A stretch of DNA of 64,000 nucleotides from Ottowia testudinis (GCF_017498525.1 NZ_CP071796.1:4098041-4162040), one strand, 5' to 3'. Shown: positions 33,065 to 52,220, numbered from the stretch's first letter. Translations and numbers: made by a program. The notes: a model not told the origin generated them from the letters alone.

Positions 33065-33123
33065 GGCTCTCTTTCGGTCAGATCAGGACGAGGGGAAAAG
33101 GGTTGTGAGGTTGGTTTTTTTGA

Positions 33124-33320
33124 ACAGCCTGAACTTCCGGACGCAGAGGACGCAGAGGTTTCGCAGAGGACGCAGAAGGAACAGCCAAAAAGGATTTTTT
33201 AGCTCTCAAATTCATAGCGCACTACGCGGATTGCACGTGGACAAGCGGCGGATTTCGCCTTGTTTTTGAATTTTTTGCGTCCTCTGCGTCATCTTTGCGT
33301 CCTTGGCATGAGGCTGTTTG
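33124..33320. repeat. Family C MITE-like element, copy C1: terminal inverted repeats of tandem GACGCAGAGG units around an AT-rich core
   Basis: Left arm AACAGCCTGAACTTCCGGACGCAGAGGACGCAGAGG...; right arm is its reverse complement ...GCGTCCTCTGCGTCATCTTTGCGTCCTTGGCATGAGGCTGTTTGG. Inside the operon, between the NfeD-like and flotillin genes. Confidence 0.7.
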
Positions 33321-33324
33321 GAAT

Positions 33325-33975
33325 TCATTCATCTATCGGCAACACATCGACCCGATAGCGCAGCGTCGCTGCGTCGTAATCGGTCACCAGCGCGCGGTCG
33401 CCGCGCTTGAAGGGGTTGGGGCTGGGCGCCCACACGCGGATGTTGATGCTGGCGCCGCGCTGGGCGACTTCGGCGCGGCCCTGGCGCTCGTCCACGGTGC
33501 CGGTGAGGATGCGGCACACCTGCCCCACCAGCGCGGCGTTGGTTTGCGCCGTGTGCGTCACGAACAGGCCGCGCAGCGGGCGCACCAGGCGCGCGGTGAC
33601 GATGATCGACAGCGCCGCCGCCAGCGCCAGCACCACGCCACCGGCCAGGGCGTGCAGCGGCGCGGTGGGCACCAGCGGCAGCACCAGCACGCTGGCCAGC
33701 GCGGTGAACAGCCAACCCACCAGCACCAGCAGGCTGATGGCAATCGAAAACGGCACGCCGTTCAGGCCCATGGCCACCACGTAGCTGGCCAGCGTGCCCA
33801 GATCCTCGGGGCTGGCGTCGGCGTGGGTGTCGATGTCGACGTCGATGCCGCTCGACTCAAAGTCGACCATGCCCAGCAGCGCCAGCAGCCAGTAGATCAA
33901 CACCACGCCCAGCAGCACGGTGTAGACCATCGTCGGCCAGGACGTGATCACGGTCAGCACGGAAGCGGCGGGCAT
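33325..33975 (-). CDS. NfeD/YqiJ-like membrane protein (flotillin-associated, C-terminal OB-fold)
   Basis: Multiple transmembrane helices, then a soluble C-terminal domain (VRPLRGLFVTHTAQTNAALVGQVCRILTGTVDERQGRAEV...). The pairing upstream of a flotillin gene is the classic yqiJ-yqiK arrangement. Confidence 0.7.
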   Translation of the reverse strand: MPAASVLTVITSWPTMVYTVLLGVVLIYWLLALLGMVDFESSGIDVDIDTHADASPEDLGTLASYVVAMGLNGVPFSIAISLLVLVGWLFTALASVLVLPLVPTAPLHALAGGVVLALAAALSIIVTARLVRPLRGLFVTHTAQTNAALVGQVCRILTGTVDERQGRAEVAQRGASINIRVWAPSPNPFKRGDRALVTDYDAATLRYRVDVLPIDE

Positions 33976-34007
33976 GGTTCTGGTTCCCTCTCGATGAATG
34001 ATGATGC

Positions 34008-34102
34008 TTTTATTTTTATAGCTGCTGGCGCTTTCCAGTCTTCGTTTTCAAATCATTTTCCTCTGAAACTGGCTCCCGACAAGCGCAAGCAGCTATGTTT
34101 TT
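34008..34102. repeat. Family A repeat with enlarged loop (ATAGCTGCTGGCGCTTTCCAGTC ...45 bp... GACAAGCGCAAGCAGCTATG)
   Basis: The two arms match the family A half-sites but are separated by an AT-rich 45-bp insert. The right arm overlaps the stop of the 34093-34449 ORF. Confidence 0.55.
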
Positions 34103-34449
34103 TGCTTCAGCTTGCCGCGCCGGGGCGCCTGGGCAAAGCCGATCAACTCGCGCGTGGCCGCTTCCTTGATGGCCAGGCGGTCGTCCGCGGGCAGCCCATA
34201 ACGGTTCGCCAGCACATCGTAATCATCGCCGCTCAAGGTGACCGTGAGGCGCGGGCGCTTGGGCCGCTCGGCCGCCACGGGCAGGCCGAGCAGCAGGCGG
34301 ATCTGCGTGGAGGTGGACACGTTGGCTTCGAACGCGGCCACGCGCACCGCCTCCATCACCGCCTCTTCCACGTCGAACGCCACCTGCACGGCGCGCAGCG
34401 CGCTGTCCGAGCCCTGCCAGCGCGCCGGCTTGGCGGGCAAGGGGCTCAT
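34093..34449 (-). CDS. Hypothetical protein (118 aa), translationally coupled to the upstream PspA-family gene
   Basis: Its ATG overlaps the stop of the 34446-35180 gene (ATGA). No recognised domain. Confidence 0.5.
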   Translation of the reverse strand: MSPLPAKPARWQGSDSALRAVQVAFDVEEAVMEAVRVAAFEANVSTSTQIRLLLGLPVAAERPKRPRLTVTLSGDDYDVLANRYGLPADDRLAIKEAATRELIGFAQAPRRGKLKQKT

Positions 34450-35180
34450 GCGGCGTCCGGTTTGGGGGCGGGCAGCGCGGGCGCGGCGGCGGTCTGGCGG
34501 GCACGGATGCGCGCCATCACCTCGGCGGCGCGCACCTTGGGGTTGTCGCCAATGCCGGCCTCGGCCAGCTTGCGCTCCAGCGCGCGGTGGCCGAATTCGG
34601 CGTCCAACTCGTCGGCGGCGGCCATGCGGTCGGCCAGGTCGTTGTGGCGCTGCTTGATGCGCTCCAGCGACTGGCGCGCCGTCACCAACTGCGAGCCGCT
34701 GGCGCCCATGCTGTCGGCAATTTTCTGCGTGGCGCGGTACACGCTTTCGGTGGTCTTGGCGATGCCGATCTCGCGCTCGTGCTCGCGCACGCGGGCTTCG
34801 GCGGCGCGGATCAGGTCTTTCAACCGGCCCACTTGCAGCGCGTAGGCGGCGTGCGCCTGGGTCTGCTCGGCCAGCTCGGTTTCGAGCGCGGCCACGCGCT
34901 CGGCCACTTCCAGCGCCAGCGGCTCGTTGGCCTTGTCCAGCGCCTGCACGGCCAGGTCTTCGTGGCGGCGGATGTCGCCCTGGATGCGTTCGATCTCGCG
35001 CGCGCTCTGCTTTTCCTTGGCCATCACGCCGGTGAGTTCGGTCTTAGCCTCGTTCACGCTGGCCTTGGCGTCGATGATTTCCTGCTCGTAGATGCGGGTG
35101 GCGTTGGCATCCACCAGGCTCTGGCCCAGTTCGCGCGTGCTGCCGCGCAGCAGGGTGACGAGTTTCTTGATGACGGACAT
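34446..35180 (-). CDS. PspA/IM30 (Vipp1/ESCRT-III-like) family protein, YjfJ-like
   Basis: MSVIKKLVTLLRGSTRELGQSLVDANATRIYEQEIIDAKASVNEAKTELTGVMAKEKQ...; the N-terminal amphipathic helix plus long coiled coil is typical of PspA/IM30. Confidence 0.85.
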   Translation of the reverse strand: MSVIKKLVTLLRGSTRELGQSLVDANATRIYEQEIIDAKASVNEAKTELTGVMAKEKQSAREIERIQGDIRRHEDLAVQALDKANEPLALEVAERVAALETELAEQTQAHAAYALQVGRLKDLIRAAEARVREHEREIGIAKTTESVYRATQKIADSMGASGSQLVTARQSLERIKQRHNDLADRMAAADELDAEFGHRALERKLAEAGIGDNPKVRAAEVMARIRARQTAAAPALPAPKPDAA

Positions 35181-35212
35181 GGCGGTTCTCCTTGTCGGTT
35201 GAATGGGGGCGG

Positions 35213-35632
35213 TTACTTCAGGAATTCGGCCAGCGCATCGAGCGCATCGAGCGCGTTGTCGGACAGCACGGCCACCTCATGCGCCACGTCTTCGGGCCGC
35301 GCGCCGCGCGCCAGCGCGCCGGTCAGCACGTAGCGCCCGCCTATGCGGCCAAACGACGACAGCGGCACCGAGGGATTCAAATCGAGCATGGCTTCGAGCA
35401 GCTCGACGTGGCGCTCGGGCCGCACGTCGGCCTCGGTCCACAGGTAGCACAGGCAGATGATTTGCGTGTCGGAGCAGGTGACGAAGATCGGCAGCTCGTC
35501 GCGCCCTTCGATGCTGACTTGCAGCACCGGCACATCGCCCGTGATGGGCTGCAACTGCACCTGGGCGCCGCCCATCAGCGCAGCAGTAAGCGTGTCGAGC
35601 TGGCGCAGTTGCTGCAACAAGGTGGCCGGCAT
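35213..35632 (-). CDS. Hypothetical protein upstream of the PspA-family gene (YjfI-like position), about 139 aa
   Basis: GGAGGG lies 7 nt before the ATG. The conserved pairing with a PspA-family gene resembles E. coli yjfI-yjfJ. The family assignment is tentative. Confidence 0.5.
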   Translation of the reverse strand: MPATLLQQLRQLDTLTAALMGGAQVQLQPITGDVPVLQVSIEGRDELPIFVTCSDTQIICLCYLWTEADVRPERHVELLEAMLDLNPSVPLSSFGRIGGRYVLTGALARGARPEDVAHEVAVLSDNALDALDALAEFLK

Positions 35633-35737
35633 GTCGAATCCCTCCATCGTTGGTGGCCGCACCGGGTGATGCGGTGTCGCCATATTATGTCCAACGACAT
35701 GATATGTCAAACGATTTTGTTCGGCGTCTGGTGGCAA

Positions 35738-35898
35738 AAACAGCCGGACGCGAAGGACGCGAAAAAGACAAAAATCTTCTGGCCTATGGGGTCGTTGGCC
35801 GCGCCATCACGAACGATGTGTCACGAGCCGAACAAGAATTTTTTGAATTCTTTCGCGTCTTTCGCGCAATCTTCGCGCCCTTCGCGTAAGGGCTGTTT
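35738..35898. repeat. Family C MITE-like element, copy C2 (arms built from GACGCGAAGG / CGCGAA units)
   Basis: Left arm AAACAGCCGGACGCGAAGGACGCGAAAAAGAC; right arm is the reverse complement of AAACAGCCCTTACGCGAAGGGCGCGAAGATTGCGCGAAAGACGCGAAAG. Its end includes the RND stop codon. Confidence 0.7.
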
Positions 35899-38800
35899 AT
35901 GTCGCGCGCTCCCCGCCACCCCGCCAGCGCCGCTTCACCCACTCCGCCACGTCGTCCACATACGTGAACACCGCCGGAATCACCAACAGGCTCAAGAAAG
36001 TGGAGGTGATCAGGCCACCAATCACCGCCACCGCCATCGGCGAGCGAAAGCTGGGGTCTGAGCCGCCCCAGCCAATCGCAATCGGCAGCATGCCGGCGCC
36101 CATGGCCAGCGTGGTCATGATGATGGGGCGCGCGCGTTTGTGGCAGGCGTCCATCAACGCTTCAAACCGATTCAGCCCATGCTCGCGCCGCGCCAGGATG
36201 GCGTATTCGACCAGCAGGATCGAGTTCTTGGTCGCCACACCCATCAGCATGATCAGGCCGATCAGCGAGGGCATCGACAGCGACTTGCCCGCCAGCAGCA
36301 GCCCCACGAAGGCGCCGCCCAGCGACAGTGGCAGCGCCGCCAGAATCGTGATGGGGTGCAGCACGTGGTGAAACAGCAGCACCAGCACCAGGTAGATGCA
36401 CAGGATGCCCGTCAGCATGGCCAGACCAAAGCCCAGAAACAGCTCGCCCATCACCTCGGCATCGCCCACCTCGACCACGCGCACACCGGCGGGCAGCGTC
36501 TTGACCGAAGGCAGCTCCTTCACCTTGGCCGCCACGTCGCCCAGCGGCTGACCCGACAGTTCCACTTCCAGATTCACGTTGCGCGCGCGGTCGTAGCGGT
36601 TGATGACCGCGGGGCCGCCCGAGAGGCTGAGGGCCGCCACCTGCGACAGCGGCACCGGGCCCTTGCTGCCGGGCACGTGCAGGCGCGCCAGCACATCGAG
36701 GTTCTTGCGCGCGTCGGCGTCGAGCTTGACCACGATGGGGATCTGCCGCTGCGCCAGGTTGAGCTTGGGCAACTGCGCGTCGTAATCGCCCAGCGTGGCC
36801 ACGCGCAGCGTGTCGGCAATGGCGCTGCTGGTCACGCCCAGGTCGGCGGCGCGGGCAAAGTCGGGTTTGACGGCGATCTCGGGCCGCACCAGGCTGGCCG
36901 TGCTGGTCACGCTGCCCAAGCCGGGCACGGTGCGCAAATCGCTTTCGACCGCGCGGGCGGCCTGCGTCAGCGCGTGCGGGTCGTCGCCTTGCAGCACCAG
37001 AATGTATTTCTCGCCCGAGCCGCCCAGGCCGATCTTGCTGCGCACGCCGGGCAGGCCCGCGATGAGCCGGCGCAGCTCGGCTTCCACCGCCTGCTTCACC
37101 GGCCGCTCGCCGCGCGCGGCCAGCTGAATGGTGAGCGTGGCCTTGCGCACATCGGCGGCGCCGGCCGAGAACGGATCGCCCCCGGCCGAGCCGCCACCGA
37201 TGGTGGTGTACACGCTCTTGATGTATTGGTTTTTGAGCAATTGCGCCCGCGCTGCCTCGGCCGTGCGCTCAGTTTCTTGTAGCGTCGATCCGGGCGGCAG
37301 CTCCAGGTACACCTGGGTTTGGGAGTTGTCGTCGGGCGTGATGAAGGCGGTGGGCAGCAGCGGCACCAGCGCCAGCGAGCCGATGAAAAAAGCCAGCGCC
37401 CCCAGCAGCGTGAGCAGCCGGTGCCGCACGCACCACGCCGCCCAGCGACCGTACACGCGCAGCCAGCGCGGGTCTTCGTGGCCGCCCGCCAGCGGCTTCA
37501 TCAGGTACGCCGCCATCATGGGCGTCAGCATGCGCGCCACGACCAGAGAAGCAAACACCGCCAGCGACGCCGTCCAGCCGAACTGCTTGAAGAACTTGCC
37601 GACCACGCCGCTCATGAAGGCGGTTGGCAGAAACACCGCGATCAGCGTGAAGGTGGTGGCGATCACGGCCAGGCCGATCTCGTCGGCCGCTTCCATGGCC
37701 GCCTGGTAGGGCGATTTGCCCATGCGCAGGTGGCGCACGATGTTCTCTACCTCGACAATGGCGTCGTCCACCAGGATGCCGATCACCAGCGACAGCGCCA
37801 GCAGCGACACGATGTTGATCGAGAAGCCGAAGAAGTACATGCCGATCAGCGCCGGCAGCACCGACATCGGCAGCGCCACCGCCGACACGAACGTGGCGCG
37901 CCCGTTGCGCAGAAACAGCCACACCACCAGCACCGCCAGCACGGCGCCTTCGCCCAGCATCTTGAGCGAGGCGTGGTATTCCTCCTCGACCGGGGTGACG
38001 AAGTCGAACGCCTCGGTGAACTGCAAGTCGGGGTGCGCCGCGCGCAGCTCGGCCAGCGCGGCGCGCACGCCGGCGCCCACCTCGACCTCGCTGGCGCCGC
38101 GGCTGCGCGCCACCTCGAAGCCCACCACTTTCTGGCCATTGAGCAGCGCGGCGGCGCGCGGCTCGGCCACGCTGTCGGCCACGCTGGCCACCTGATCCAG
38201 CCGCACGCTGCGCCCGTCTTGCAGCGCAATCGGCAGCGCGCGCAGTTCATCGGCCGTGCCCACGGTGGCCAGCGTGCGCACCGGCTGCTCGCCCGCGCCC
38301 AGGTCGACGCGGCCGCCGGCGCTTTCCATCTGCACCTGGCGCAGCTGGCGCGACACGTCGGCGGCGGTCACACCCAGGCCTTGCAGGCGCACCGGATCGA
38401 GCGCCACCTGCACCTGCCGATCGGCCCCGCCCACGCGGTTGACCGCGCCCACGCCCGGAATCGCCAGCAGCCGCTTGGCGATGTCGTTGTCGACGAACCA
38501 CGACAGGTCGGCATCGCTCATGCGCCGGGACGACAGCGCATAGGCCAGCATGGGCTGCGCCGCCAGATCGAGCTTGCTGACGATGGGCTCGCGCACATCG
38601 CCCGGCAAATCGCCCCGCACGCGCGAGACGGCCGAGCGCACGTCGTCCAGCGCCTCCTGCAAGTCTTTTTCGAGCCGGAACTCGACCATGATCGACACCG
38701 AGCCATCGACGATGCTGGTGCTGATGTGCTTGACGCCCTGCACCGTGGCCAGGCTGTTCTCGATCTTGCGCGCGACCTCGTTCTCCAGCTGGCCCGGCGT

Positions 38801-38962
38801 GGCGCCCGGCAGCGCCGCCACCACGTTGACCATGGGCATGTCGATGTCGGGAAAGTTCTGCACCTTCATCTGATGGAAGCTGAACAGCCCCCCCAGCGTG
38901 AGCAGCAGAAACAGCATCAGCGTCGGTACCGGGTTGCGGATCGACCAGGCGGAAAAGTTCAT
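35897..38962 (-). CDS. RND efflux transporter permease (AcrB/AcrD/AcrF superfamily), 1021 aa
   Basis: 12-transmembrane RND topology with large periplasmic loops. N-terminus MNFSAWSIRNPVPTLMLFLLLTLGG. Confidence 0.95.
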   Translation of the reverse strand: MNFSAWSIRNPVPTLMLFLLLTLGGLFSFHQMKVQNFPDIDMPMVNVVAALPGATPGQLENEVARKIENSLATVQGVKHISTSIVDGSVSIMVEFRLEKDLQEALDDVRSAVSRVRGDLPGDVREPIVSKLDLAAQPMLAYALSSRRMSDADLSWFVDNDIAKRLLAIPGVGAVNRVGGADRQVQVALDPVRLQGLGVTAADVSRQLRQVQMESAGGRVDLGAGEQPVRTLATVGTADELRALPIALQDGRSVRLDQVASVADSVAEPRAAALLNGQKVVGFEVARSRGASEVEVGAGVRAALAELRAAHPDLQFTEAFDFVTPVEEEYHASLKMLGEGAVLAVLVVWLFLRNGRATFVSAVALPMSVLPALIGMYFFGFSINIVSLLALSLVIGILVDDAIVEVENIVRHLRMGKSPYQAAMEAADEIGLAVIATTFTLIAVFLPTAFMSGVVGKFFKQFGWTASLAVFASLVVARMLTPMMAAYLMKPLAGGHEDPRWLRVYGRWAAWCVRHRLLTLLGALAFFIGSLALVPLLPTAFITPDDNSQTQVYLELPPGSTLQETERTAEAARAQLLKNQYIKSVYTTIGGGSAGGDPFSAGAADVRKATLTIQLAARGERPVKQAVEAELRRLIAGLPGVRSKIGLGGSGEKYILVLQGDDPHALTQAARAVESDLRTVPGLGSVTSTASLVRPEIAVKPDFARAADLGVTSSAIADTLRVATLGDYDAQLPKLNLAQRQIPIVVKLDADARKNLDVLARLHVPGSKGPVPLSQVAALSLSGGPAVINRYDRARNVNLEVELSGQPLGDVAAKVKELPSVKTLPAGVRVVEVGDAEVMGELFLGFGLAMLTGILCIYLVLVLLFHHVLHPITILAALPLSLGGAFVGLLLAGKSLSMPSLIGLIMLMGVATKNSILLVEYAILARREHGLNRFEALMDACHKRARPIIMTTLAMGAGMLPIAIGWGGSDPSFRSPMAVAVIGGLITSTFLSLLVIPAVFTYVDDVAEWVKRRWRGGGERAT

Positions 38963-38976
38963 GGCGGCGGCGGGAT

Positions 38977-39016
38977 TGAATAGCTATTTATTTAATAGCT
39001 GTTTGCGCTTGATTGG
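38977..39016. repeat. Family A-like AT/GC palindrome (AATAGCTATTTATTTAATAGCTGTTTGCGCTTGATTGG), overlapping the 3' end of the periplasmic adaptor gene
   Basis: It encodes the last residues (..ANQAQTAIK*) of the 38988-40142 product and reaches the RND start region. Confidence 0.5.
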
Positions 39017-40142: not shown

Positions 40143-40200
40143 CGGTGATTCCTGGGGCGCTGCTCGGGCGCGCTGATCGCTGTCGCGAAGCCGTGGTGAT

Positions 40201-41634: not shown

Positions 41635-41780
41635 GCGATGCTTCAAAAACCTGGGTGCGCGCGAATGTTGCATTGCACCACAGCTGCATGGCATCACTGC
41701 GAGAACCCGCACTGTGCTTATGGTGCCAAGGCGTCGCCACAGGCCAAGCCGCGACGAACCGAAAAATACAAGGATTTAAG

Positions 41781-41828
41781 GCCCTTGTCCACGTCAGGCA
41801 AGCGCAAGCAGCTATCGAAAACGAAGTG
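41781..41828. repeat. Family A repeat (GGCCCTTGTCCACGTCAGGCAAGCGCAAGCAGCTATCGAAAACGAAGTG)
   Basis: Same right-arm subtype as the 30106 and 30874 copies. Confidence 0.65.
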
Positions 41829-41872
41829 CCGGACAAAATGGCGGCGGCACCAGCCAATGCCTTCTCAGCGTG

Positions 41873-41980
41873 ATCCGAAGGCCGCGGAGCAGGCCACACC
41901 GGAACGCCGTGGTCGGGGTTCCCCCGACCACCAGCGTTGTCCCCCTCAGGGGGAAGGCGCGTCAGCGCCACAGGGGGAGT
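41873..41980 (+). repeat. Family B multi-hairpin repeat, copy B2, abutting tRNA-Arg
   Basis: GATCCGAAGGCCGCGGAGCAGGCCACACCGGAACGCCGTGGTCGGGGTTCCCCCGACCACCAGCGTTGTCCCCCTCAGGGGGAAGGCGCGTCAGCGCCACAGGGGGAG. Relative to B1 the central stem carries compensatory C-G to T-A changes. Confidence 0.8.
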
Positions 41981-41986
41981 GTTGTT

Positions 41987-42062
41987 TGGCGCGGCTGGCG
42001 GGGATCGAACCCACGACCCTCGGCTTCGGAGGCCGATACTCTATCCACTGAGCTACAGCCGC
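41987..42062 (-). tRNA. tRNA-Arg (anticodon CCG), CCA encoded
   Basis: Cloverleaf folded by hand: acceptor GCGGCTG/CAGCCGC, D-arm GCTC-AGTGGATA-GAGT, anticodon stem TCGGC/GCCGA with loop CTCCGAA (anticodon CCG), T-arm GTGGG-TTCGATC-CCCGC, then 3' GCCA. Confidence 0.9.
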
Positions 42063-42097
42063 TTGTCGGACAAGGCCGCGATTATCCCCGATTGCGC

Positions 42098-42283
42098 AAA
42101 CAGCAACAGCCGGACGCGAAGGGCGAAAAAGTTACGCGAAGAACGCGAAAGATTCAAAAAGGTTTTGTTCGGGGAGTGAAGTAGCGCCCGTGCGGGCTCA
42201 TCGATCACGGGCACGCACTGCAAATTTTGTCTTTTTTGCGTCGTTCGCGAATCCTTCGCGCCCTTCGCTTCGGGCTGTTGGAG
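42098..42283. repeat. Family C MITE-like element, copy C3
   Basis: Left arm CAACAGCCGGACGCGAAGGGCGAAAAAGTTACGCGAAGAACGCGAAAG; right arm is the reverse complement of CAACAGCCCGAAGCGAAGGGCGCGAAGGATTCGCGAACGACGCAAAAAAG. There is a central GC hairpin. Confidence 0.7.
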
Positions 42284-42296
42284 GTTGAGCACAGCG

Positions 42297-42974
42297 TTAT
42301 CCGCCGACCTCACCGACGCCGCCACACATCACCTGGAACGCTTCCGCATCCGGCATGCACTGCGCCGGCAGCCCGATGCCGCACAAATACGCCGCCATGG
42401 CAACGCGGGCGGTGGCTTCCAGATCGAAGCCGCGCTGCAGCAGCCAGCCGTACACCAGCCCGCGCACCATGGCGTGAAAGCCATCGGCCAGCTGCCGCGC
42501 CGGCGCGGGCAGCGGCTGGCCGCGCAGGGCGCTGGCGCGCTCGAAGGCGTGCGTCACGCGCTCCACGTTGGCGTTGTCAACCTGCACGTGGCGCTCGCGC
42601 ACGGGGCCCAGGTCTTCGACCAGCTCGACCATCACGGTGGCGATGTTCAACACGCGCTGGGTGCGCGCGTCGCCCGCGATCTGCGCCAGCGAGCGGGCGA
42701 TGCGCAGCACCAGCGCGTCGACCGGGTCGCCGGCGCACTGGGCCAGACCCTCCAGCTCGGTTTCCAGCGGCAGGGTCACGCGCTCCATCATGGCGTTGAA
42801 CAGGTCGGCCTTGTCCTTGAAATGCCAGTACACCGCGCCGCGCGTTAGCCCCGCCGCCTCGGCGATGTGGTTGAGCGAGGTGCGCGACACACCGCGCTGC
42901 TCGAACACGCGCTCGGCGGCGTCGAGCAGCGCTTCGCGCGTGGCCTGGGCGTCTTGCTTGGTGCGGCGCGCCAT
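42297..42974 (-). CDS. TetR/AcrR-family transcriptional repressor, divergent from the second RND operon
   Basis: Helix-turn-helix TREALLDAAERVFEQRGVSRTSLNHIAEAAGLTRGAVYWHFKDK. Confidence 0.9.
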   Translation of the reverse strand: MARRTKQDAQATREALLDAAERVFEQRGVSRTSLNHIAEAAGLTRGAVYWHFKDKADLFNAMMERVTLPLETELEGLAQCAGDPVDALVLRIARSLAQIAGDARTQRVLNIATVMVELVEDLGPVRERHVQVDNANVERVTHAFERASALRGQPLPAPARQLADGFHAMVRGLVYGWLLQRGFDLEATARVAMAAYLCGIGLPAQCMPDAEAFQVMCGGVGEVGG

Positions 42975-43176
42975 GGCGTCAGAAGATGAAAAAGTACCTG
43001 GACATGACGTGGACTCTACCACATACATTCAAGCATGTATGTATAATCGCGCCTTTTCGGTCAAGCGCCGGACGCCGGGTTTGACTACGATCAAACCTCC
43101 GTGGCGGCGCATTCGGCCTGTTTTTTTGCACGCACCGGCGCCCCAACGCACCCGCCTGCCCTACCCGAGATCACGC

Positions 43177-44475: not shown

Positions 44476-44495
44476 CGCCTGACGAGAGCTGACGC

Positions 44496-47400
44496 ATGGC
44501 CAAGTTCTTCATCGACCGCCCCATCTTCGCGTGGGTCATCGCCCTGTTCCTGACGGTGCTGGGCGCCATCTCCATCACGCAGCTGCCGGTGGCGCAGTAC
44601 CCGAGCGTGGCGCCGCCGACCATCGTGCTGTCGGCCACCTACCCCGGCGCCTCGGCGCAGACGCTGGAAGATGCCGTCCTCTCGGTCATCGAGCGCGAGA
44701 TGAACGGCTCGCCCGGTCTCGCTTACATGGAGTCGGTGGCGCAAGCCAACGGCACCGGCAGCATCACCCTCAGCTTCGAGCCGGGCACCAACGCCGACTT
44801 GGCGCAGGTGGACGTGCAAAACCGCCTGTCGCGCGCCAGCCCGCGGCTGCCGACCACGGTGGTGCAGCAGGGGGTGCGGGTGGACAAATCGCGCAGCAAC
44901 TTCCTGCTGTTCGCGGTGCTGTCGTCGTCCGACCCGAATTTCGACATCACCGCGCTGTCCGACTACGCCTCGCGCAACGTGCTGCCTGAATTGCAGCGCC
45001 TGCCCGGCATCGGCCAGGTGCAGCTGTTCGGCGCCGAGCGCGCCATGCGCGTGTGGATCGACCCGGCCAAGCTGCAAAGCTACAGCCTGTCGCCCGCCGA
45101 CGTGGCCAGCGCCATCGCGCAGCAGAACGCGCAGGTGTCGGCCGGCAGCCTGGGCGATTTGCCGCTGGCGGGCGGCCAGGCCATGAGCGCCACCGTGGTG
45201 GTGCCGGGCCAGATCAGCACGGTGGAGCAGTTCGGCGCCATCACGCTGCGCGCCAATGCCGACGGCAGCACGGTGCGCCTGAAAGACGTGGCCCGACTGG
45301 AGCTGGGCGCCCAGAGCTACGCCACCGCCGCGCGCCTGAACGGCCAGCCGGCCGCCGGCATGGGCGTGCAACTGTCATCTTCAGGCAACGCGCTGGCCGC
45401 GGCCAAGGCGGTGCGCGCGCGCATGACCGAGCTGGAGCGGTTTTTTCCGCCCGGCGTGACCTGGAAGATTCCCTACGACTCGTCGGACTTCGTGCGCATT
45501 TCCATCACCGAAGTGGTCAAGACGCTGCTGGAGGCGATTGCGCTGGTGTTTCTGGTGATGTTCCTGTTCCTGCAGAACTGGCGCTACACCGTCATCCCGA
45601 CCGTGGTGGTGCCGGTGGCGCTGCTGGGCACGTTTGCCGCGCTGCTGGCGTTCGGCATGTCGATCAACGTGCTGACCATGTTCGGCATGGTGCTGGTGAT
45701 CGGCATCGTGGTGGACGACGCCATCGTGGTGGTCGAGAACGTCGAACGCATCATGAGCGAGGAAGGCCTGCCGCCGCTGGCCGCCACGCGCAAGGCCATG
45801 GGCCAGATCTCGGGCGCCATCATCGGCGTGACGGTGGTGCTGATCTCGGTGTTCGTGCCGCTGGCGTTCTTTGCCGGCTCGGTGGGCAACATCTACCGCC
45901 AGTTCTCGGCGGTGATGGCGGTGTCGATCTTCTTCTCGGCCTTCATGGCGCTGTCGCTCACGCCGGCGCTGTGCGCCACGCTGCTGAAACCCGTGGAGAA
46001 AGGCCACCACGTCGAAAAGCGCGGCTTCTTCGGTTGGTTCAACCGGCGCTTTCAGCGCACCGCCAAGGGCTATGAAGGCATCGTCGCCCGGCTGGTGCGC
46101 CGCGCGGGTCGGCTGATGATCGTCTACCTGGCGCTGGCGCTGGTGGTGGGCTGGCTGTACATGCGGCTGCCGACTTCGTTCCTGCCGCAGGAAGACCAGG
46201 GCAACATCCTGGTCAACATGCAGCTGCCGCCCGGCGCCACGCTGGAGCGCACGCAAAAGGTGGTCGAGCAGGTCGAGGGCTACCTGCTCCAGCAGCCCGA
46301 GGTGGCCAACATGGTGGCGGTGATGGGCTTCTCGTTCTCGGGCCAGGGGCAGAACGCGGCGCTCTCCTTCGTGTCGCTCAAACCGTGGGACGAACGCAAG
46401 GGCCCCGAGCACGCGGCCGGCGCCATCGCAGGCCGCGCCATGGGCGCGCTGTCGGGCGTCAAGGATGCGTTCATCTTTCCTCTGAGCCCGCCGCCGATCC
46501 CCGAGCTGGGCGTCAGCTCGGGCTTTACCTTCCGCCTGCAAGACCGCGCCGGCAAGGGCCACGAGGCGCTGATCGCCGCGCGCAACCAGATGCTGGGCAT
46601 GGCGATGCAAAGCAAGGTGCTGGCCGGCGTGCGGCCCGACGGGCTGGAAGACGCGCCGCAGCTGCAAGTGGACATTGACCGCGACAAGGCCGCCGCGCAG
46701 GGCGTGACGTTTGCCGCCATCAACAACGCCATCTCGGCGTCGCTGGGTTCGGCCTACGTCAACGACTTCCCGAACCAGGGGCGCTTGCAGCGCGTGATCA
46801 TCCAGGCCGATGCGCCGGCGCGCATGCAGCCCGAGGACATCCTGCGCCTCACGGCGCTCAACAGCAAGGGCCAGGCGGTGCCGCTGTCGGCCTTTGCCAG
46901 CACGCGTTGGATTACTGGCGCCATGCAGACCGTGCGCTACAACGGCTACCCGGCGATCCGCATCGCCGGCGGCGCGGCGCCCGGTTTTTCGACCGGCGAC
47001 GCCATGCGCGAGATGGAGCAACTGGCCGCCAAGCTGCCCGAAGGCTTCGGCTACGAATGGACGGGGCAGTCGCGCGAGGAAAAGCTGGCCGGCAACCAGG
47101 CGCTGATCCTGTACGGCTTTGCCATCCTGGCGGTGTTTCTGGCGCTGGCGGCCTTGTATGAAAGCTGGTCGATTCCGTTCGCCGTGATTCTGGTGGTGCC
47201 GCTGGGCGTGCTGGGCGTGCTGCTGGCCGTCACCGGGCGCGGGCTGCTGAACGACGTGTACTTCCAGGTCGGCCTGATCACCATCATCGGCCTATCGGCC
47301 AAGAACGCCATCCTGATCATCGAATTCGCCAAGGACTTGCAGGCGCAGGGCATGAGCGTGTTGGCCTCTGCGCTGGCGGCGGCGCATCTGCGCTTCAGGC

Positions 47401-47678
47401 CGATCATCATGACCTCGATGGCCTTCATCCTGGGCGTGCTGCCGCTGGCGATTGCCAGCGGCGCCGGCTCGGCGGCGCAGCGCGCCATCGGCACCGGAGT
47501 GATGGGCGGCATGATCGTCGGCACCTTCCTCGCCGTGTTCTTCGTGCCGCTGTTCTTCGTGGTGGTGCGCAGCCTGTTCAAGGGCTCGGCCCGCCAGCAG
47601 GAGCACGCCGCCGCACATGCGCGCGATGCCGGCGTCAGCGCCGACGCCACCCCCTCGAACCCGAAAGACCACCCATGA
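44496..47678 (+). CDS. RND multidrug efflux permease (AcrB/MexB-like, HAE1)
   Basis: MAKFFIDRPIFAWVIALFLTVLGAISITQLPVAQYPSVAPPTI...; 1060 aa. Confidence 0.95.
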   Translation: MAKFFIDRPIFAWVIALFLTVLGAISITQLPVAQYPSVAPPTIVLSATYPGASAQTLEDAVLSVIEREMNGSPGLAYMESVAQANGTGSITLSFEPGTNADLAQVDVQNRLSRASPRLPTTVVQQGVRVDKSRSNFLLFAVLSSSDPNFDITALSDYASRNVLPELQRLPGIGQVQLFGAERAMRVWIDPAKLQSYSLSPADVASAIAQQNAQVSAGSLGDLPLAGGQAMSATVVVPGQISTVEQFGAITLRANADGSTVRLKDVARLELGAQSYATAARLNGQPAAGMGVQLSSSGNALAAAKAVRARMTELERFFPPGVTWKIPYDSSDFVRISITEVVKTLLEAIALVFLVMFLFLQNWRYTVIPTVVVPVALLGTFAALLAFGMSINVLTMFGMVLVIGIVVDDAIVVVENVERIMSEEGLPPLAATRKAMGQISGAIIGVTVVLISVFVPLAFFAGSVGNIYRQFSAVMAVSIFFSAFMALSLTPALCATLLKPVEKGHHVEKRGFFGWFNRRFQRTAKGYEGIVARLVRRAGRLMIVYLALALVVGWLYMRLPTSFLPQEDQGNILVNMQLPPGATLERTQKVVEQVEGYLLQQPEVANMVAVMGFSFSGQGQNAALSFVSLKPWDERKGPEHAAGAIAGRAMGALSGVKDAFIFPLSPPPIPELGVSSGFTFRLQDRAGKGHEALIAARNQMLGMAMQSKVLAGVRPDGLEDAPQLQVDIDRDKAAAQGVTFAAINNAISASLGSAYVNDFPNQGRLQRVIIQADAPARMQPEDILRLTALNSKGQAVPLSAFASTRWITGAMQTVRYNGYPAIRIAGGAAPGFSTGDAMREMEQLAAKLPEGFGYEWTGQSREEKLAGNQALILYGFAILAVFLALAALYESWSIPFAVILVVPLGVLGVLLAVTGRGLLNDVYFQVGLITIIGLSAKNAILIIEFAKDLQAQGMSVLASALAAAHLRFRPIIMTSMAFILGVLPLAIASGAGSAAQRAIGTGVMGGMIVGTFLAVFFVPLFFVVVRSLFKGSARQQEHAAAHARDAGVSADATPSNPKDHP

Positions 47679-49207
47679 AGCCCGCACCCCTGGTTTCTTC
47701 CGCCGCGGCACTGCCACGCCTGATTGGCACCGCCGCGCTCGCCAGTCTGCTGGCGGCCTGTTCCTTCGTGCCCAAATACGAGCAGCCGGCCGCGCCCGTC
47801 AGCGCCACCTGGCCCGACTCGGCCGGCGCGCTGACCGAAGGCGGCACCGCCGCCGCCGATCTGCCCTGGCAGCAGTTCGTGCACGATGCGCAGCTGCGCG
47901 AGGTCATCCAGCTGGCGCTGGAGAACAACCGCGACCTGCGCGTGGCGGCGCAGAACATCGAGCAGGCGCGCGCGCAGTACCAGATTCGCCGCGCGGATCA
48001 GTTCCCCACCGTGGGCGCCAACGCGGCGGCCTCGCGCTCGGCGCCCAACGCCATGGCGGCGCTGGGCGGTCCCAGCGTGGCCAGCAACTACAGCGTCGGC
48101 ATCGGCGTGTCGGCGTGGGAGCTGGACTTTTTCGGCCGCGTGGCCGCGCTGAAAGACGTCGCGCTGGCGCAATACCTGGCGACCGAAGAGGCGCGCAAGT
48201 CGGCGCAGATCAGCCTGATCGCCAGCGTGGCCAGCACCTGGCTGCAATTCAAGACCGACACCGAGCTGCTGGCGCTGGCCGAGCGCACGCTGGGCACACG
48301 CGACCAATCGCTGCGCCTGACCAAGCTGCGCTTTGACCACGGCGCGTCGTCGGCGCTCGACATGCGCCTGGCCGAATCGCTGTCGGCCAGCGCGCAGGCC
48401 ACGCGCGCCCAGCAGCAGCGCCTGCGCGCACAGGACATCAACCTGCTGACGCTGCTGGTCGGCCAGCCGATCCCCGAGCGCCTGATCCCGCCCGTGCCCG
48501 CCGCCGTCACGCCCGAGCCGCCCCGCGACTTGACGCAGCCCACACCGGCGGTGCAGCCAGCGGCCGATCTGCCCACCTTCACTGAAGTGCCGGCGGGATT
48601 GCCGTCAGACCTGATGCTGCGCCGGCCCGACATCCGCGCCGCCGAGCAGCAGCTGATCGCCGCCAACGCCAACATCGGCGCGGCGCGCGCCAACTTCTTC
48701 CCGCGCATTTCGCTCACCGGCTCGCTCGGCCGCGTGAGCGCCGACCTGGACGGGCTGTTCGGCTCCGGCGGACACCAGGCCTGGTCGTTCGGCCCCAGCA
48801 TCACGCTGCCGATCTTCGACATGGGCCGCAACCAGGCCAACCTGGACGCCGCTCGCGCCGCGCGCGAAATCGCCGTGGCGCAGTACGAAAAAGCCATCCA
48901 GACCGCCTTCCGCGAAGTGGCCGACGCCCTGGCCGGCCGCGCCACGCTGGCCGATCAGCTCACCGCGCTGCAAGCGCAGGCCGCGGCCGAACGCGACCGC
49001 TTCCGCCTGGCCGACCTGCGCTACCGCAACGGCATCGCCAACTACCTGGACTTGCTGGACGCGCAGCGCTCGCTGTTCGCCATCGAACAGGCGCTGGCGC
49101 AGGTGCGCCTGGCGCAGCGCGTGGGCGAGGTGCAGCTGTACAAGGCGCTGGGGGGCGGCTGGACCGGCTTTCAGGCGCCGGTGGCAACCCCCGGCACCGC
49201 AGGCTGA
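47675..49207 (+). CDS. Efflux outer-membrane factor lipoprotein (OprM-like)
   Basis: Lipobox LLAACS. ATGA overlap with the RND gene. Confidence 0.9.
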   Translation: MKPAPLVSSAAALPRLIGTAALASLLAACSFVPKYEQPAAPVSATWPDSAGALTEGGTAAADLPWQQFVHDAQLREVIQLALENNRDLRVAAQNIEQARAQYQIRRADQFPTVGANAAASRSAPNAMAALGGPSVASNYSVGIGVSAWELDFFGRVAALKDVALAQYLATEEARKSAQISLIASVASTWLQFKTDTELLALAERTLGTRDQSLRLTKLRFDHGASSALDMRLAESLSASAQATRAQQQRLRAQDINLLTLLVGQPIPERLIPPVPAAVTPEPPRDLTQPTPAVQPAADLPTFTEVPAGLPSDLMLRRPDIRAAEQQLIAANANIGAARANFFPRISLTGSLGRVSADLDGLFGSGGHQAWSFGPSITLPIFDMGRNQANLDAARAAREIAVAQYEKAIQTAFREVADALAGRATLADQLTALQAQAAAERDRFRLADLRYRNGIANYLDLLDAQRSLFAIEQALAQVRLAQRVGEVQLYKALGGGWTGFQAPVATPGTAG

Positions 49208-49249
49208 GCAAGTCACCGGCCCGGGCGCGGCTGCCCGCTGAGCCCATCC

Positions 49250-49325
49250 GCGCCAGCGCCGTGGCGCACGGGCGGCCCCCTATAATCGCCGGTTGATGCG
49301 CGTGCGCCACGGCGCTGGCTGGCGC
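49250..49325. promoter_or_regulatory. About 20-bp-stem palindrome with CCCTATAAT in the loop, between the OprM-like gene and the cytochrome c gene
   Basis: CGCCAGCGCCGTGGCGCACG ...TATAAT... CGTGCGCCACGGCGCTGG. Possibly a terminator for the efflux operon and/or a regulated promoter for the cytochrome c gene. Confidence 0.35.
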
Positions 49326-49378
49326 ACTGCCTTCCTCTCTCCCCGAAAAAATCACCCGACCGAGCCCCCGAGGACGCC

Positions 49379-50269
49379 ATGAGCGACATCACGCACGACG
49401 AAGCACACACCGGCCCCATCAAAACCCCGAGGCAGCTGTTCTGGGCCAGCATGGGGGCGTTCGTGTTGCCGGTGTTCATCATCATCGGCCTGGTTTTCTT
49501 CGTCACCTCGGACAACAAGAAGGCGCCCGGCGCCTCCGATGTCGAGCGCGCCATCGCCGAACGCCTGCAGAAGGTCGGCACGGTGGAAATCCGCGACGCC
49601 AACCGGCCGCTGGCCAGTGGCGAAGAGGTCTACAAGGCCCAGTGCACGGCCTGTCACGCGACGGGCGTCTCGGGCGCGCCGAAAACGGGCAACGCCGCCG
49701 AGTGGGCGCCACGCATCGCCAAGGGTTACGACACCCTGCTGCTGCACGCGGTCAAGGGCTTCAACGCCATGGCGCCGCAGGGTGGCGGCAATTTCAGCGA
49801 CCTGGAAATCGGCCGCGCCGTGGTTTACCTGGCCAACGCCGCCGGTGGCAAGCTGGCCGAGCCGGCCGCCCCAGCCAGCGGTGCGGCATCGGCAGCCGCT
49901 CCGGCTGAAGCGCCCTCCGCCGCAGCGTCAGCATCCGCCCCAGCACCAGCCGCCTCGGCGGCGGCTTCCGCACCGGCGGCCATTGTGGCCGCCGCCGCAC
50001 CCGCCGCTGCGGCCGCACCGGCCGCCGACCCGGCCGTGGGCAAGGCGTTGTACGAAAAGGCCTGCGTCACCTGCCACGCCGCCGGCGTGGCTGGCGCGCC
50101 CAAGTTCGGCGACAAGGCCGCCTGGGCGCCCCGCATTGCCACCGGCATGGACGCCATCATGCAAGTGGTCATCAACGGCCGGGGGGCAATGCCGCCGCGC
50201 GGCGCATCGACCGCCACCGACGACGAACTGCGCGCCGCCGCCCAGTACATGGTGGACCACGCCAAGTAA
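49379..50269 (+). CDS. Dihaem cytochrome c (c5-like domains) with N-terminal membrane anchor and long Ala/Pro/Ser linker
   Basis: Two CxxCH motifs (CTACH, CVTCH), each followed by GVxGAPKxG...WAPRIA. About 70 residues of A/P/S-rich linker lie between them. Confidence 0.85.
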   Translation: MSDITHDEAHTGPIKTPRQLFWASMGAFVLPVFIIIGLVFFVTSDNKKAPGASDVERAIAERLQKVGTVEIRDANRPLASGEEVYKAQCTACHATGVSGAPKTGNAAEWAPRIAKGYDTLLLHAVKGFNAMAPQGGGNFSDLEIGRAVVYLANAAGGKLAEPAAPASGAASAAAPAEAPSAAASASAPAPAASAAASAPAAIVAAAAPAAAAAPAADPAVGKALYEKACVTCHAAGVAGAPKFGDKAAWAPRIATGMDAIMQVVINGRGAMPPRGASTATDDELRAAAQYMVDHAK

Positions 50270-50287
50270 TCCACCGCTTGGCGCCAT

Positions 50288-50319
50288 GAAAAAAGCCGCT
50301 GCATCAGCGGCTTTTTTTC
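50288..50319. terminator. Rho-independent terminator (GCCGCTG-CAT-CAGCGGC + TTTTTTT), with an A-tract on the other side, so likely bidirectional
   Basis: Seen directly, 19 bp after the cytochrome c stop. Confidence 0.75.
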
Positions 50320-50326
50320 CATGCTC

Positions 50327-50386
50327 AAATCGGCCGCCAGCGCTTGACCATCAAGCGTGAGCAGCTATGAAATCATGAGTAATTGA
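50327..50386. repeat. Family A repeat (CCAGCGCTTGACCATCAAGCGTGAGCAGCTATGAAATCATGAG)
   Basis: Adjacent to the terminator. Confidence 0.7.
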
Positions 50387-50403
50387 TGCGCCAACCGCGG
50401 CGC

Positions 50404-50946
50404 TCAGCCGGCCGCGCTTGCGGCCTGCGGACTGCTCACGTAGCCTTCGCGCGCGGCCAAATCCGCCGCCACCACGGGCCGCGGATGCCAGCGGCCGGCC
50501 TCCACGGCGTCGGCCACCCACGGCACGTCCTGCGTGTGCACCAGGCCGAAGCCGAGGTCGGTGCGCAGGAAGACCCGGCCCGCCTCGTCGGTGAACACCT
50601 CGCGCACCGCGGCCGGCCGGCCGTCGTGTGCGCTGACCGCGCCGTCGGGCGCCAGCCGCCAGATCCACGGCGTGACTTCGAGCTCGACGAACACGCGCTG
50701 CGGGCCGTTCTGGAAGAACCAGCGGCCCGCCTCATCCGCCTGGTAGTTGCGCTGGATGAACTCGATCAGCTTCTGGTGCTCGATGCGCGAGCCCTTGGCC
50801 CCCGGGGCGCCGCTGGCAAAGCCGCCCAGCGCCTGGGCCCGGGCATCGCGCAGATACCAGTGGCCGCGCGCGTCCAGCCCCAGCCAGCCGTAGGCGTGCG
50901 GCACGTTGGGCCACTTGACCATGGCCTGCTTGACGATGTCGTCCAT
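50404..50946 (-). CDS. Conserved hypothetical protein (about 180 aa)
   Basis: MDDIVKQAMVKWPNVPHAYGWLGLDARGHWYL...; no family assigned. Start chosen at the internal ATG. Confidence 0.5.
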   Translation of the reverse strand: MDDIVKQAMVKWPNVPHAYGWLGLDARGHWYLRDARAQALGGFASGAPGAKGSRIEHQKLIEFIQRNYQADEAGRWFFQNGPQRVFVELEVTPWIWRLAPDGAVSAHDGRPAAVREVFTDEAGRVFLRTDLGFGLVHTQDVPWVADAVEAGRWHPRPVVAADLAAREGYVSSPQAASAAG

Positions 50947-50953
50947 CGGGCCA

Positions 50954-51958
50954 TTATGGGCCGCGCCCCGCTTGCGCCAGCAGCCAGCCACCTACGGCGC
51001 GCGGCAGCCAGAACACGTGGCCCGGCGGCAGCGCGCCTTCGGCAAAGCCGACGTGCCCGCCCTCGCGCGGCTGCCACAGCGTGACGTAGCGCCCCACCTC
51101 GCCCGCGCGCGGCAGCGACGCGGCGGGCACGAAGGGATCGTTCAGCGCATTCAGCGCCAGCGCCGGCACGCGGATGCCGGGCAGCAGCGGTTTGGCCGAG
51201 GCGCGCCGGTAGTAGTCAGCCACTCCCGCGAAGCCGTGCAGCGGCGCGGTGAACAGGTCGTCGAAGGCGATCAAATCGCGCGCCGCGCGCAGGCGCCGCG
51301 GGTCGAACAGGCCGGGGTGCTGCGCCAGCTTGGCCGCCGCCTTGGCCTTCATGGTGCGCAAGAACATGCGGGTATAGACCTGCCGGTTGAAGCCGTGGCC
51401 GATGGCGCTGGCGCCGGCCGCCAGATCGAGCGGCGCGCACACCGACGCCACGGCGCTGACGCTGCGTGCCGCCGCGCCGCCTGCCTCGCCAGCCCAGCGC
51501 AGCAGCGCATTGCCGCCCAGCGACACGCCAACCGCCAGCAGCGGCTGGCCGCGCGTGGCGGGCTCGGCATCGAGCCGGGCGCGCAGGCGGCCCAGCAGCC
51601 AACCGATCTCGGCCACGTCGCCCGAGTGGTAGGCGCGCGGCGCGTGGTTGATCTCGCCCGAGCAGCCGCGAAAGTGCGGCACCGCCAAACCAAGACCGCG
51701 CGCCCGCGCCCAGCCAGCGAAGGCTTCGGCATAGTGGCTGCGCGAGGAGCCTTCGAGGCCGTGGAACAACACCACGAACGGCGCCGCGCACGGCGGTTGG
51801 GCCAGAAAGTCGACGTCGACGAAGTCGCCATCGGGCGTGGCCCAGCGCTCGCGCCGGTAAGCCACGCGCCCGCCCACGACGCGTCGCGCGCGCAGCGCCG
51901 GCCACAAGGTCTGCAGCTGGCCGCCGGGCAGCCAGGCGGGGGCGCGGTAGATGGTCAC
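50954..51958 (-). CDS. YheT-type alpha/beta hydrolase
   Basis: VLFHGLEGSS...GVSLGGN nucleophile elbow; layout typical of the YheT/ABHD family. Confidence 0.8.
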   Translation of the reverse strand: MTIYRAPAWLPGGQLQTLWPALRARRVVGGRVAYRRERWATPDGDFVDVDFLAQPPCAAPFVVLFHGLEGSSRSHYAEAFAGWARARGLGLAVPHFRGCSGEINHAPRAYHSGDVAEIGWLLGRLRARLDAEPATRGQPLLAVGVSLGGNALLRWAGEAGGAAARSVSAVASVCAPLDLAAGASAIGHGFNRQVYTRMFLRTMKAKAAAKLAQHPGLFDPRRLRAARDLIAFDDLFTAPLHGFAGVADYYRRASAKPLLPGIRVPALALNALNDPFVPAASLPRAGEVGRYVTLWQPREGGHVGFAEGALPPGHVFWLPRAVGGWLLAQAGRGP

Positions 51959-51965
51959 TTCAAAA

Positions 51966-52006
51966 TCTATAGCTGCTCGCGCAAGTTGGGCGCGCGAAAG
52001 CGCCGT
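51966..52006. repeat. Family A repeat, divergent subtype (TATAGCTGCTCGCGCAAGTTGGGCGCGCGAAAGCGCC)
   Basis: Left flank of C4. Confidence 0.55.
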
Positions 52007-52023
52007 TTTTCATGCTGAACCCA

Positions 52024-52130
52024 AAACCTTTGAACGCAAAGTGCGCAGAGATTTCGCAAAAGCCGCAGAAGTTTTTTCTGGTTTTCTTTTGCGTCTTTTG
52101 CGTGATCTTTGCGACCTTTGCGTTCAAGAA
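52024..52130. repeat. Family C element, copy C4 (arms built from ACGCAAAG / CGCAGA units)
   Basis: TTTGAACGCAAAGTGCGCAGAGATTTCGCAAAAGCCGCAGAAG ... CTTTTGCGTCTTTTGCGTGATCTTTGCGACCTTTGCGTTCAAG; the arms are inverted repeats. Confidence 0.6.
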
Positions 52131-52135
52131 ACATC

Positions 52136-52170
52136 AAAAATCATAGCTGCTCGCGCTTGATTGACGTGGA
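52136..52170. repeat. Family A half-site (AAAAATCATAGCTGCTCGCGCTTGATTGACG), in direct orientation to 51966-52006
   Basis: Right flank of C4. Confidence 0.55.
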
Positions 52171-52220
52171 CCAGAGCCCTTTTTGACCTGAAAATCGCCT
52201 TTCGCGAAGGGCGCCGTCGG

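Follow-up and report, generated by a model that had tools for sequence, protein, structure and literature searches.

Eukaryotic foldback (FB) elements, those of Drosophila among them, carry long inverted arms built of short tandem sub-repeats around a variable or absent centre, with occasional coding cargo, and the intervening sequences (IVSs) of 23S rRNA are flanked by inverted repeats and excised by RNase III. In bacteria, REP and REPIN sequences and their RAYT (TnpA-REP) proteins are described as repeat-plus-enzyme systems (PMC3116915, PMC5581495, PMC8266576), and the Coxiella 23S rRNA IVS is presented as an example of an intervening sequence that bears an open reading frame (ORF) (PMC4990558). 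Here we describe exactly four foldback elements (C1–C4) in a 64-kilobase (kb) chromosomal stretch of Ottowia testudinis (NZ_CP071796.1, 4098041-4162040; 'the window' hereafter means this whole stretch), whose arms are homologous to arms that bracket genes for GxxExxY proteins in many bacterial phyla. We propose that C1–C4 may be ORF-less copies of such a gene cassette, maintained by a candidate repeat-plus-enzyme system.

C1–C4 are non-coding, 106-197 nucleotides (nt) long, and share one order: an outer head, an arm of two to four CGCRRA(G) cores, a centre of 14-100 nt and the inverted arm (coordinates in Table 1). An initial annotation, made from the sequence alone, had placed four copies here, and reading of the intervals, a pattern scan and an arm profile all confirm them. 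The AACAGCC terminus that it gave to every copy holds for C1–C3 (AACAGCC/GGCTGTT) but not for C4, which has a TTTGAAC/GTTCAAA head; its arms of two to four tandem units of about 10 nt do have two to four units, but the unit is a 7-nt core with a 2-4-nt spacer, and the start-to-start distances of the heptamer CGCRRAG in the window arms alternate between 9 and 11 nt, giving a super-period of 20 nt. The dominant unit is mostly CGCAGAG in C1, CGCGAAG in C2 and C3, and CGCAAAG/CGCAGAG in C4. Clusters of CGCRRA/TYYGCG hexamers with 9,11,9 start-to-start spacing occur in the 64 kb at the C1–C4 loci only; the 35-nt pattern CGCRRA-N3-CGCRRA-N5-CGCRRA-N3-CGCRRA, allowing up to two mismatches, matched seven window arms against 0.02 expected from shuffles; and an nhmmer arm profile built from other genomes only, window sequences excluded, recovered all eight C1–C4 arms and gave no other match in the window. 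With the class defined by at least three C(G/A)CRRAG heptamers per inverted arm, 1-4-nt spacers and a TTxAAC/CCGRAC-type head, the window elements fall within it, except that the left arm of C2 has two units.

The left and right arms are inverted repeats, as had been annotated, and their folds far exceed those of shuffled sequences as both RNA and DNA. Against dinucleotide shuffles the RNA folds of C1–C4 have z scores from -5.2 to -9.2 on both strands (C1, -7.1 on the plus and -6.4 on the minus strand; C3, -6.7 and -6.6; C4, -9.2), and as DNA C4 reaches -8.2 and C2 -5.1. The centre, annotated as AT-rich with a motif of its own, is not conserved between copies: the centres of C1, C2 and C3 are mutually unrelated, and the motif quoted for them, 'TTTTTGAATT', is an inner extension of the inverted repeat and nothing more. 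A second motif, 'TTTTTGAATTC', was tried as a marker of orientation relative to an ORF and dropped, being likewise an inner part of the inverted repeat. Since the window holds no GxxExxY ORF, and a protein-profile search found no remnant of the ORF core in the four centres, C1–C4, with no PF13366 ORF between their arms, are best described as probable ORF-less derivatives of the GxxExxY cassette. An 18-amino-acid match to the ORF in the C3 centre was set aside as unconvincing, being weak (E 0.045) and overlapping an arm.

Heptamer arrays typically enclose the GxxExxY genes of diverse phyla. In other genomes (loci and contigs are denoted by L numbers), members of a small ORF family lie directly against or between the arms (L014, L052, L096 and L099), and the ORFs between arms match PF13366 (PDDEXK_3, E 1e-37 to 1e-39) and TIGR04256 ('GxxExxY protein'), the product being a PD-(D/E)XK protein of roughly 120 amino acids. 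A full-length cassette runs from a head motif through three to four C(G/A)CRRAG heptamers and the predicted nuclease gene to an inverted array; in L099, from the Comamonadaceae, the full-length form of the window subtype reads trpE stop, ACAGCCGAA-CGCAGAGggCGCAGAGgttcCGCAGAGggCGCAGAAgg, ORF, ccTTCTGCGtccTCTGCG. Among the matches listed from the pattern search, 6 of 120 loci contain a GxxExxY ORF. The association was also tested from the side of the gene, with 80 metagenomic loci selected solely for a peptide match to [LIK]G[PTC]G[LF][LT]ES[AV]Y, 69 of which had enough flanking sequence. An inverted repeat between the upstream and downstream flanks (local score at least 30) was present at 45 of these 69 GxxExxY genes versus 31 of 276 cross-locus controls (11%), and a strict heptamer detector found both arms at 39 of 68. 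The arms of the motif-picked cassettes comprise a head and three to four heptamers, with units that include CGCAGAG, CACAGAG, CACGGAG, CGCAAAG, CGCGGAG, CACGGAA and CACAGAT, mostly spaced 8-9 nt apart; because spacing outside the Comamonadaceae is mostly of this kind, the 9/11 rhythm is a feature of that family and not a universal helical period.

In the Comamonadaceae contexts examined, the gene is fixed at trpE-trpG, and the ORF-less hairpins are scattered and polymorphic. For two Comamonadaceae proteins the gene order is trpE-GxxExxY-trpG in all contexts examined (20 loci listed), with the GxxExxY ATG overlapping the trpE stop (ATGA), both arms intact and either head type present (for example L127 4001-4545 and L135 4001-4600). 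The two head types, the Ottowia-type ACAGCCGRA and TTTGAAC, flank the same gene (L127, L131, L135), and the TTTGAAC head found in C4 flanks the trpE-trpG GxxExxY gene of L135. Homologues from Variovorax, Ramlibacter and Xylophilus are annotated with a 25-40-amino-acid N-terminal extension ('LNAEGAKVTQRAQKE') that is the translated left arm, and a profile of the Comamonadaceae GxxExxY protein matches the translated window arms (C1, ELPDAEDAEVSQRTQKEQPK, E 2.6e-5). The homology of the window arms to the arms bracketing GxxExxY genes is well supported by these comparisons, for both head types. The left arm is translated as an N-terminal extension of conserved length (Comamonadaceae, L099 7515-8000; L125-L144), and a 31-amino-acid 'gene' called across the right arm at the trpE-trpG locus is probably an artefact. 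Likewise, trpG comes after a metagenomic cassette with CACAGAG units (L210 1450-2480).

Each cassette is uniform in unit type, and the type tends to recur in ORF-less hairpins on the same contig. In a set of 33 two-armed elements, the two arms of one element agree at the RR positions at a frequency of 0.83, compared with 0.63 when partners are shuffled (0.71 at most in 500 shuffles); at the seventh base of the unit the values are 0.83 and 0.55, and in the head 0.70 and 0.47, part of the excess being lineage structure, since the shuffle of arm partners mixes taxa. These elements and the window units bear out the earlier remark that units vary among copies and agree within a copy. Preservation of a hairpin, offered there as the cause, accounts for the agreement between left and right arms but not for the likeness of units within one arm: the frequency of identical unit pairs is 0.48 between the two arms of a cassette and 0.47 inside one arm, compared with 0.14 for controls. 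On 7 of the 11 contigs that also carry ORF-less hairpins at a distance from the gene, these have the dominant unit of the cassette (mean of shuffles 2.4; P ~0.0015), and unit signatures seem genome-specific in three genomes with several loci each. At L194 (2930-3064), 14 tandem CGCCAAA units lie about 1 kb from a GxxExxY cassette with CGCAGAT units.

Empty sites, which the initial annotation had proposed to look for, do occur in relatives. The C1 site holds an orthologous copy with intact 4+4 units in L253-L256 (YqiK identity 95%), a different foldback made of ATGACGAA units in L251/L252 (YqiK identity 95%), and an empty 60-nt spacer in L257/L258 (Ottowia sp., YqiK identity 90%). Likewise, the interval from a beta-eliminating lyase gene to trpD contains an ORF-less hairpin in L136 but a 30-nt spacer in L135, which has the same GxxExxY protein and gene order. 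Because an orthologous copy occupies the same site in the relative with 95% YqiK identity, C1 is, by this sequence comparison, not a recent insertion and predates a species-level split. Target-site duplications, which it had also proposed to look for, were absent: no direct repeat is shared by the flanks just outside AACAGCC/GGCTGTT in C1–C3, none was seen in the filled/empty pairs L136/L135 and window/L257, whose flanks have diverged, and the 54-nt direct repeats on either side of C4 are members of another repeat family. The foldback in L251 (6527-6660) and L252 (1784-1917) has arms of ATGACGAA / TTCGTCAT units with an 8-nt period, which suggests that the spot just past the stop of the 216-amino-acid gene beside C1 is a hotspot for more than one kind of periodic-arm foldback.

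A scan with the 35-nt pattern, taking one genome per species, found the arms in at least 120 loci from at least about 10 phyla-level groups. Comamonadaceae are frequent among the matches listed (Xenophilus, Ramlibacter, Variovorax, Polaromonas, Brachymonas, Acidovorax, Ottowia), which also include Alpha-, Gamma- and 'Delta'-proteobacteria, Acidobacteriota, Bacteroidota, Chloroflexota, Planctomycetota, Cyanobacteria, Verrucomicrobiota, Ignavibacteria, Zixibacteria and Dormibacterota. Two features that the pattern did not impose recur in these matches: an inverted partner arm, and a head (TTTAAC, TTTGAAC or CCGGAC) ahead of the first unit. Clustering of ORFs beside the arms in the 120 matches listed gave no recurrent neighbour-gene family save a few GxxExxY ORFs, and a scan for ORFs just inside the arms found no cargo besides PF13366. 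Just 26 of 2.9 million viral contigs match the pattern, so that phages do not stand out as a reservoir; no arms were present in 77 kb from four other Ottowia genomes (AcrB-orthologue loci, of differing synteny).

Some arrangements depart from the simple cassette. In Acidobacteriota the arms are often reversed, with the heads GGTTAA...TTAACC adjacent (L002 6900-7010, L005 7870-7970, L077 2866-2956), and in L096 (6926-7775), from the same phylum, the GxxExxY ORF lies between two complete hairpins and not between single arms; on account of these arrangements, arms may behave as independent modules or insert beside one another. In a Phycisphaeraceae locus (L095 7560-7700), a second arm pair with a different unit is nested inside the outer arms (CGCGAAGATC / GATCTTCG).

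We read the heptamers as probable recognition sites of the nuclease because pairing cannot explain the likeness of units within an arm, because mismatches between arms show no wobble preference, and because units track cassettes and contigs. Each arm would then offer predicted binding sites to several protomers of the small protein, and since both arms and every unit in an arm would have to fit that same protein, uniformity within a copy would follow. The GxxExxY protein would act in trans and at the DNA level, copying or maintaining the ORF-less foldbacks, by a logic that resembles REPIN/RAYT with a PD-(D/E)XK enzyme replacing the HUH transposase. We put the probability that C1–C4 are ORF-less, non-autonomous copies of a GxxExxY cassette, serviced in trans in such a REPIN/RAYT-like manner, at about 0.5. 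More tentative is a generalization that we would bet on at slightly less than even odds: that GxxExxY (PF13366) proteins and heptamer-array repeats form an unrecognised multi-phylum repeat-plus-enzyme system, in which a nuclease, often with a single fixed position in the host (trpE-trpG, for instance), recognises the arrays and generates or maintains foldbacks, the sequence of the unit co-evolving with the protein.

An RNA-level function is a competing account that we consider unlikely. The transcribed arms would form by base-pairing a long, interrupted stem whose processing, by RNase III for instance, would insulate or release the ORF, and the ORF-less copies would serve as signals for mRNA processing, stability or punctuation in operons. 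That all four window elements lie close past stop codons, between co-directional minus-strand genes, fits such a role, as do the strong RNA folds on both strands, the residence of full-length cassettes inside the trp operon with a start codon overlapping the trpE stop, and the 23S rRNA IVS, in the cited description an ORF-bearing selfish element of similar size (PMC4990558). The mismatches between arms speak differently: in 41 ORF cassettes, 45 are sense-compatible and 42 antisense-compatible, with 105 transversions, so that there is no bias for G:U over A:C on the sense strand, and nothing points specifically to a selected RNA hairpin. The account also leaves the uniformity of units within an arm unexplained by pairing, no canonical terminator-like site facing the flanking genes was found on the minus strand inside C1–C4, and there is no Rfam family to which the elements belong: in the window, Rfam at gathering score returned tRNA only, and for eight related loci a search by E-value gave just spurious long-hairpin miRNA models. 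We find it still less probable that each ORF-less copy was left behind when a separate full-length GxxExxY cassette lost its ORF by deletion, and that no foldback ever moved as such. Such relics could well have unrelated centres, as C1, C2 and C3 do in contrast to typical MITE (miniature inverted-repeat transposable element) families, and both the persistence of C1 at one orthologous site and the partial decay of arms (right in C1, left in C2) are in keeping with them; yet no centre retains a detectable piece of the ORF core, C4 and many elements in other genomes have short loops of just 5-30 nt with both arms intact, hairpins occur in tandem runs with a single unit type (L154, L219), and GxxExxY ORFs are scarce among the matches listed, the Comamonadaceae ORF having been seen at trpE-trpG only.

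The MITE/foldback interpretation of the initial annotation was partly right and is partly supported: the elements are small, non-coding, multi-copy, intergenic foldbacks with inverted termini, but they are not MITEs in the strict sense, and that interpretation missed the cassette supplying the arms, the breadth of the family and the tie to GxxExxY. A classical MITE mobilised by a DDE-type insertion sequence with the same terminal inverted repeats is in our view very improbable, given that no target-site duplication was found at the four copies or in filled/empty comparisons, that no transposase-like neighbour recurs in the 120 loci among the matches listed, that about 250 loci contained no transposase-bearing partner with the same ends, and that PF13366 is the sole cargo seen between such arms. 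Hardly more credible are immobile binding arrays of a host regulator or nucleoid protein with no link to GxxExxY, for example a winged-helix protein reading direct repeats one turn apart. The 9/11-nt spacing of the Comamonadaceae subtype would place the units roughly on one helix face, as such a protein might need, but the spacing is mostly 8-9 nt in other phyla, unit sequence varies among copies in one genome, sites such as that of C1 are not conserved at orthologous positions, and the association with GxxExxY genes is strong and specific.

Several points weigh against our preferred reading, in which ORF-less copies are serviced in trans by a GxxExxY protein. About a third of GxxExxY genes have no detectable arms, and the proposed link between protein and repeats comes from sequence association; the protein gave no match by sequence in the PDB or in PADLOC and PHROGs, and its AlphaFold model was unusable (predicted local distance difference test, pLDDT, 40). 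The search for a GxxExxY gene in O. testudinis, which found none, covered the 64-kb window, and the three unit types in the window would call for either relaxed specificity or more than one paralogue. Local duplication, and not action in trans, could account for linked hairpins of one unit type, and the uniformity of units could stem from slippage or gene conversion among tandem units. C1 has kept its place through a species-level split, and mobility would therefore be slow at best, and neither a target-site duplication nor a precise insertion boundary was definable in the comparisons.

Table 1. Positions of the foldback elements in the window and of features beside them
Feature	Position	Strand	Description
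C1, ORF-less foldback	33123..33319	.	AACAGCC 33123-33129 outermost; GGCTGTT 33312-33318
C1 left arm	33133-33180		Four units, CGCAGAG/CGCAGAA
C1 centre	33181-33268		Contains a copy from a different repeat family
C1 right arm	33269-33303		Three units; outermost unit decayed
C1 context			6 nt past the stop of a 216-amino-acid gene; 59 nt ahead of a 708-amino-acid YqiK/flotillin-like gene; both in one operon
C2, ORF-less foldback	35739..35897	.	AACAGCC 35739-35745; GGCTGTT 35891-35897
C2 left arm	35746-35763		Short, two CGCGAAG units; arm-profile match E 0.47
C2 right arm	35847-35889		Four CGCGAA units
C2 context	35897-35899	-	AcrB stop TAA, overlapped by one base (the last of C2)
Promoter beside C2	35710-35682	-	Sigma-70-like, TTGACA-17-TAATAT; upstream of a DUF2170-PspA operon
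C3, ORF-less foldback	42105..42279	.	AACAGCC 42105-42111; GGCTGTT 42273-42279
C3 extra terminus	42099-42104		Partial duplicate AACAGC, directly before AACAGCC
C3 arms	left 42109-42154, right 42231-42268		CGCGAAG units
C3 context, TetR stop	42297-42299		C3 lies 17 nt past it
C3 context, tRNA-Arg(CCG)	41987-42062	-	C3 lies 36 nt ahead of its 5' end
C4, compact ORF-less foldback, TTTGAAC-head subtype	52026..52131	.	Loop ~14 nt
C4 arms	left 52026-52072, right 52084-52131		Four units per arm, CGCAAAG/CGCAGAG
C4 context			SnoaL-like gene on one side, alpha/beta-hydrolase gene on the other

The window elements sit at operon junctions and at one synteny breakpoint; at the junctions they look like passengers, and nothing suggests a changed function of the neighbouring genes. 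The annotated placement of C1 inside the flotillin operon was correct, as was the observation that the end of C2 includes the stop codon of the RND gene, that of AcrB. Beside C2, the longest DUF2170 ORF (35213-35737, minus strand; 174 amino acids, TTG start) is probably over-extended, relatives having 139 amino acids, and the sigma-70-like promoter falls between C2 and the likely true DUF2170 start. As C3 ends so close upstream of the mature tRNA-Arg(CCG) 5' end, the promoter of this tRNA (region 42062-42111) must overlap the duplicated AACAGC-AACAGCC terminus or lie directly against it. A further family of dispersed repeats, AATCATAGCTGCTCGCGCTTG..., has four window matches (up to three mismatches) against 0.02 expected. 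Its copies lie at 1226-1246, 34080-34100 (minus), 50352-50372 (minus), 51957-52010, 52131-52184 and ~33200-33265; those at 51957-52010 and 52131-52184 are the 54-nt direct repeats (70% identity) that bracket C4, the copy at ~33200-33265 seems nested within the C1 centre, and a related copy lies past AcrB in another Ottowia contig (L121 5745-5800).

The wider cassette pattern is more interesting than the window elements themselves. PF13366/TIGR04256 is a large multi-phylum family with no known function (the single catalogue entry for PF13366 gives its function as unknown), and the heptamer arrays offer a concrete, testable candidate substrate. The literature searched yielded no paper that ties PF13366/GxxExxY to these repeats or quotes the repeat sequences, nor one on Comamonadaceae MITEs of this kind; the pairing is seemingly undescribed, although the flanking repeats may have caught the attention of database curators who did not report them in print. 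In practice, the arm profile is a means to find and mask these repeats, and annotation artefacts find an explanation in them, N-terminal 'NAEGAKVTQRAQKE'-type extensions and similar small hypothetical ORFs being translated arms.

How, then, does the system compare with those already described? Its resemblance to eukaryotic FB elements is architectural only, those elements being of kilobase scale and unrelated sequence. With MITEs the foldbacks share small size, non-coding sequence, inverted termini, several copies and presence or absence between relatives; unlike MITEs, they have no target-site duplication, no DDE-transposase parent and no shared internal sequence, and their arms are made of sub-repeats. 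The full-length cassette recalls the 23S rRNA IVS, which the cited account describes as a small selfish cassette that lies in a transcribed host unit and carries a short ORF without known function (PMC4990558). The elements described here, by contrast, lie between protein or tRNA genes, with no rRNA in the window, the ORF belongs to PF13366 and not to the S23p four-helix bundle family, and IVS stems are not heptamer arrays. Against REP/RAYT as portrayed in PMC3116915, PMC5581495 and PMC8266576, the flanked gene encodes a PD-(D/E)XK protein of PF13366/TIGR04256, of about 120 amino acids, and not a Y1 HUH, IS200/IS605-like transposase; in place of a 20-40-nt imperfect palindrome with a GTAG-type head there is an array of three to four CGCRRAG heptamers headed by ACAGCCGRA or TTTGAAC, a GTAG head being absent; and the taxonomic range extends to Acidobacteriota, Bacteroidota, Chloroflexota, Planctomycetota and Cyanobacteria. 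Unlike REP/RAYT, the GxxExxY system is a prediction from sequence. In organization the two are nonetheless close: short intergenic palindromic doublets in many scattered copies, an enzyme gene that lies between inverted copies of these repeats, a gene at one fixed locus (trpE-trpG in the Comamonadaceae contexts examined) like the single-copy RAYT, repeat sequences specific to genome or lineage, and no target-site duplication. If our reading is true, GxxExxY proteins would add a second enzyme class to the bacterial systems of repeats with a domesticated enzyme, so far essentially REPIN/RAYT, and the REPIN/RAYT way of life would have arisen a second time, by an independent mechanism.

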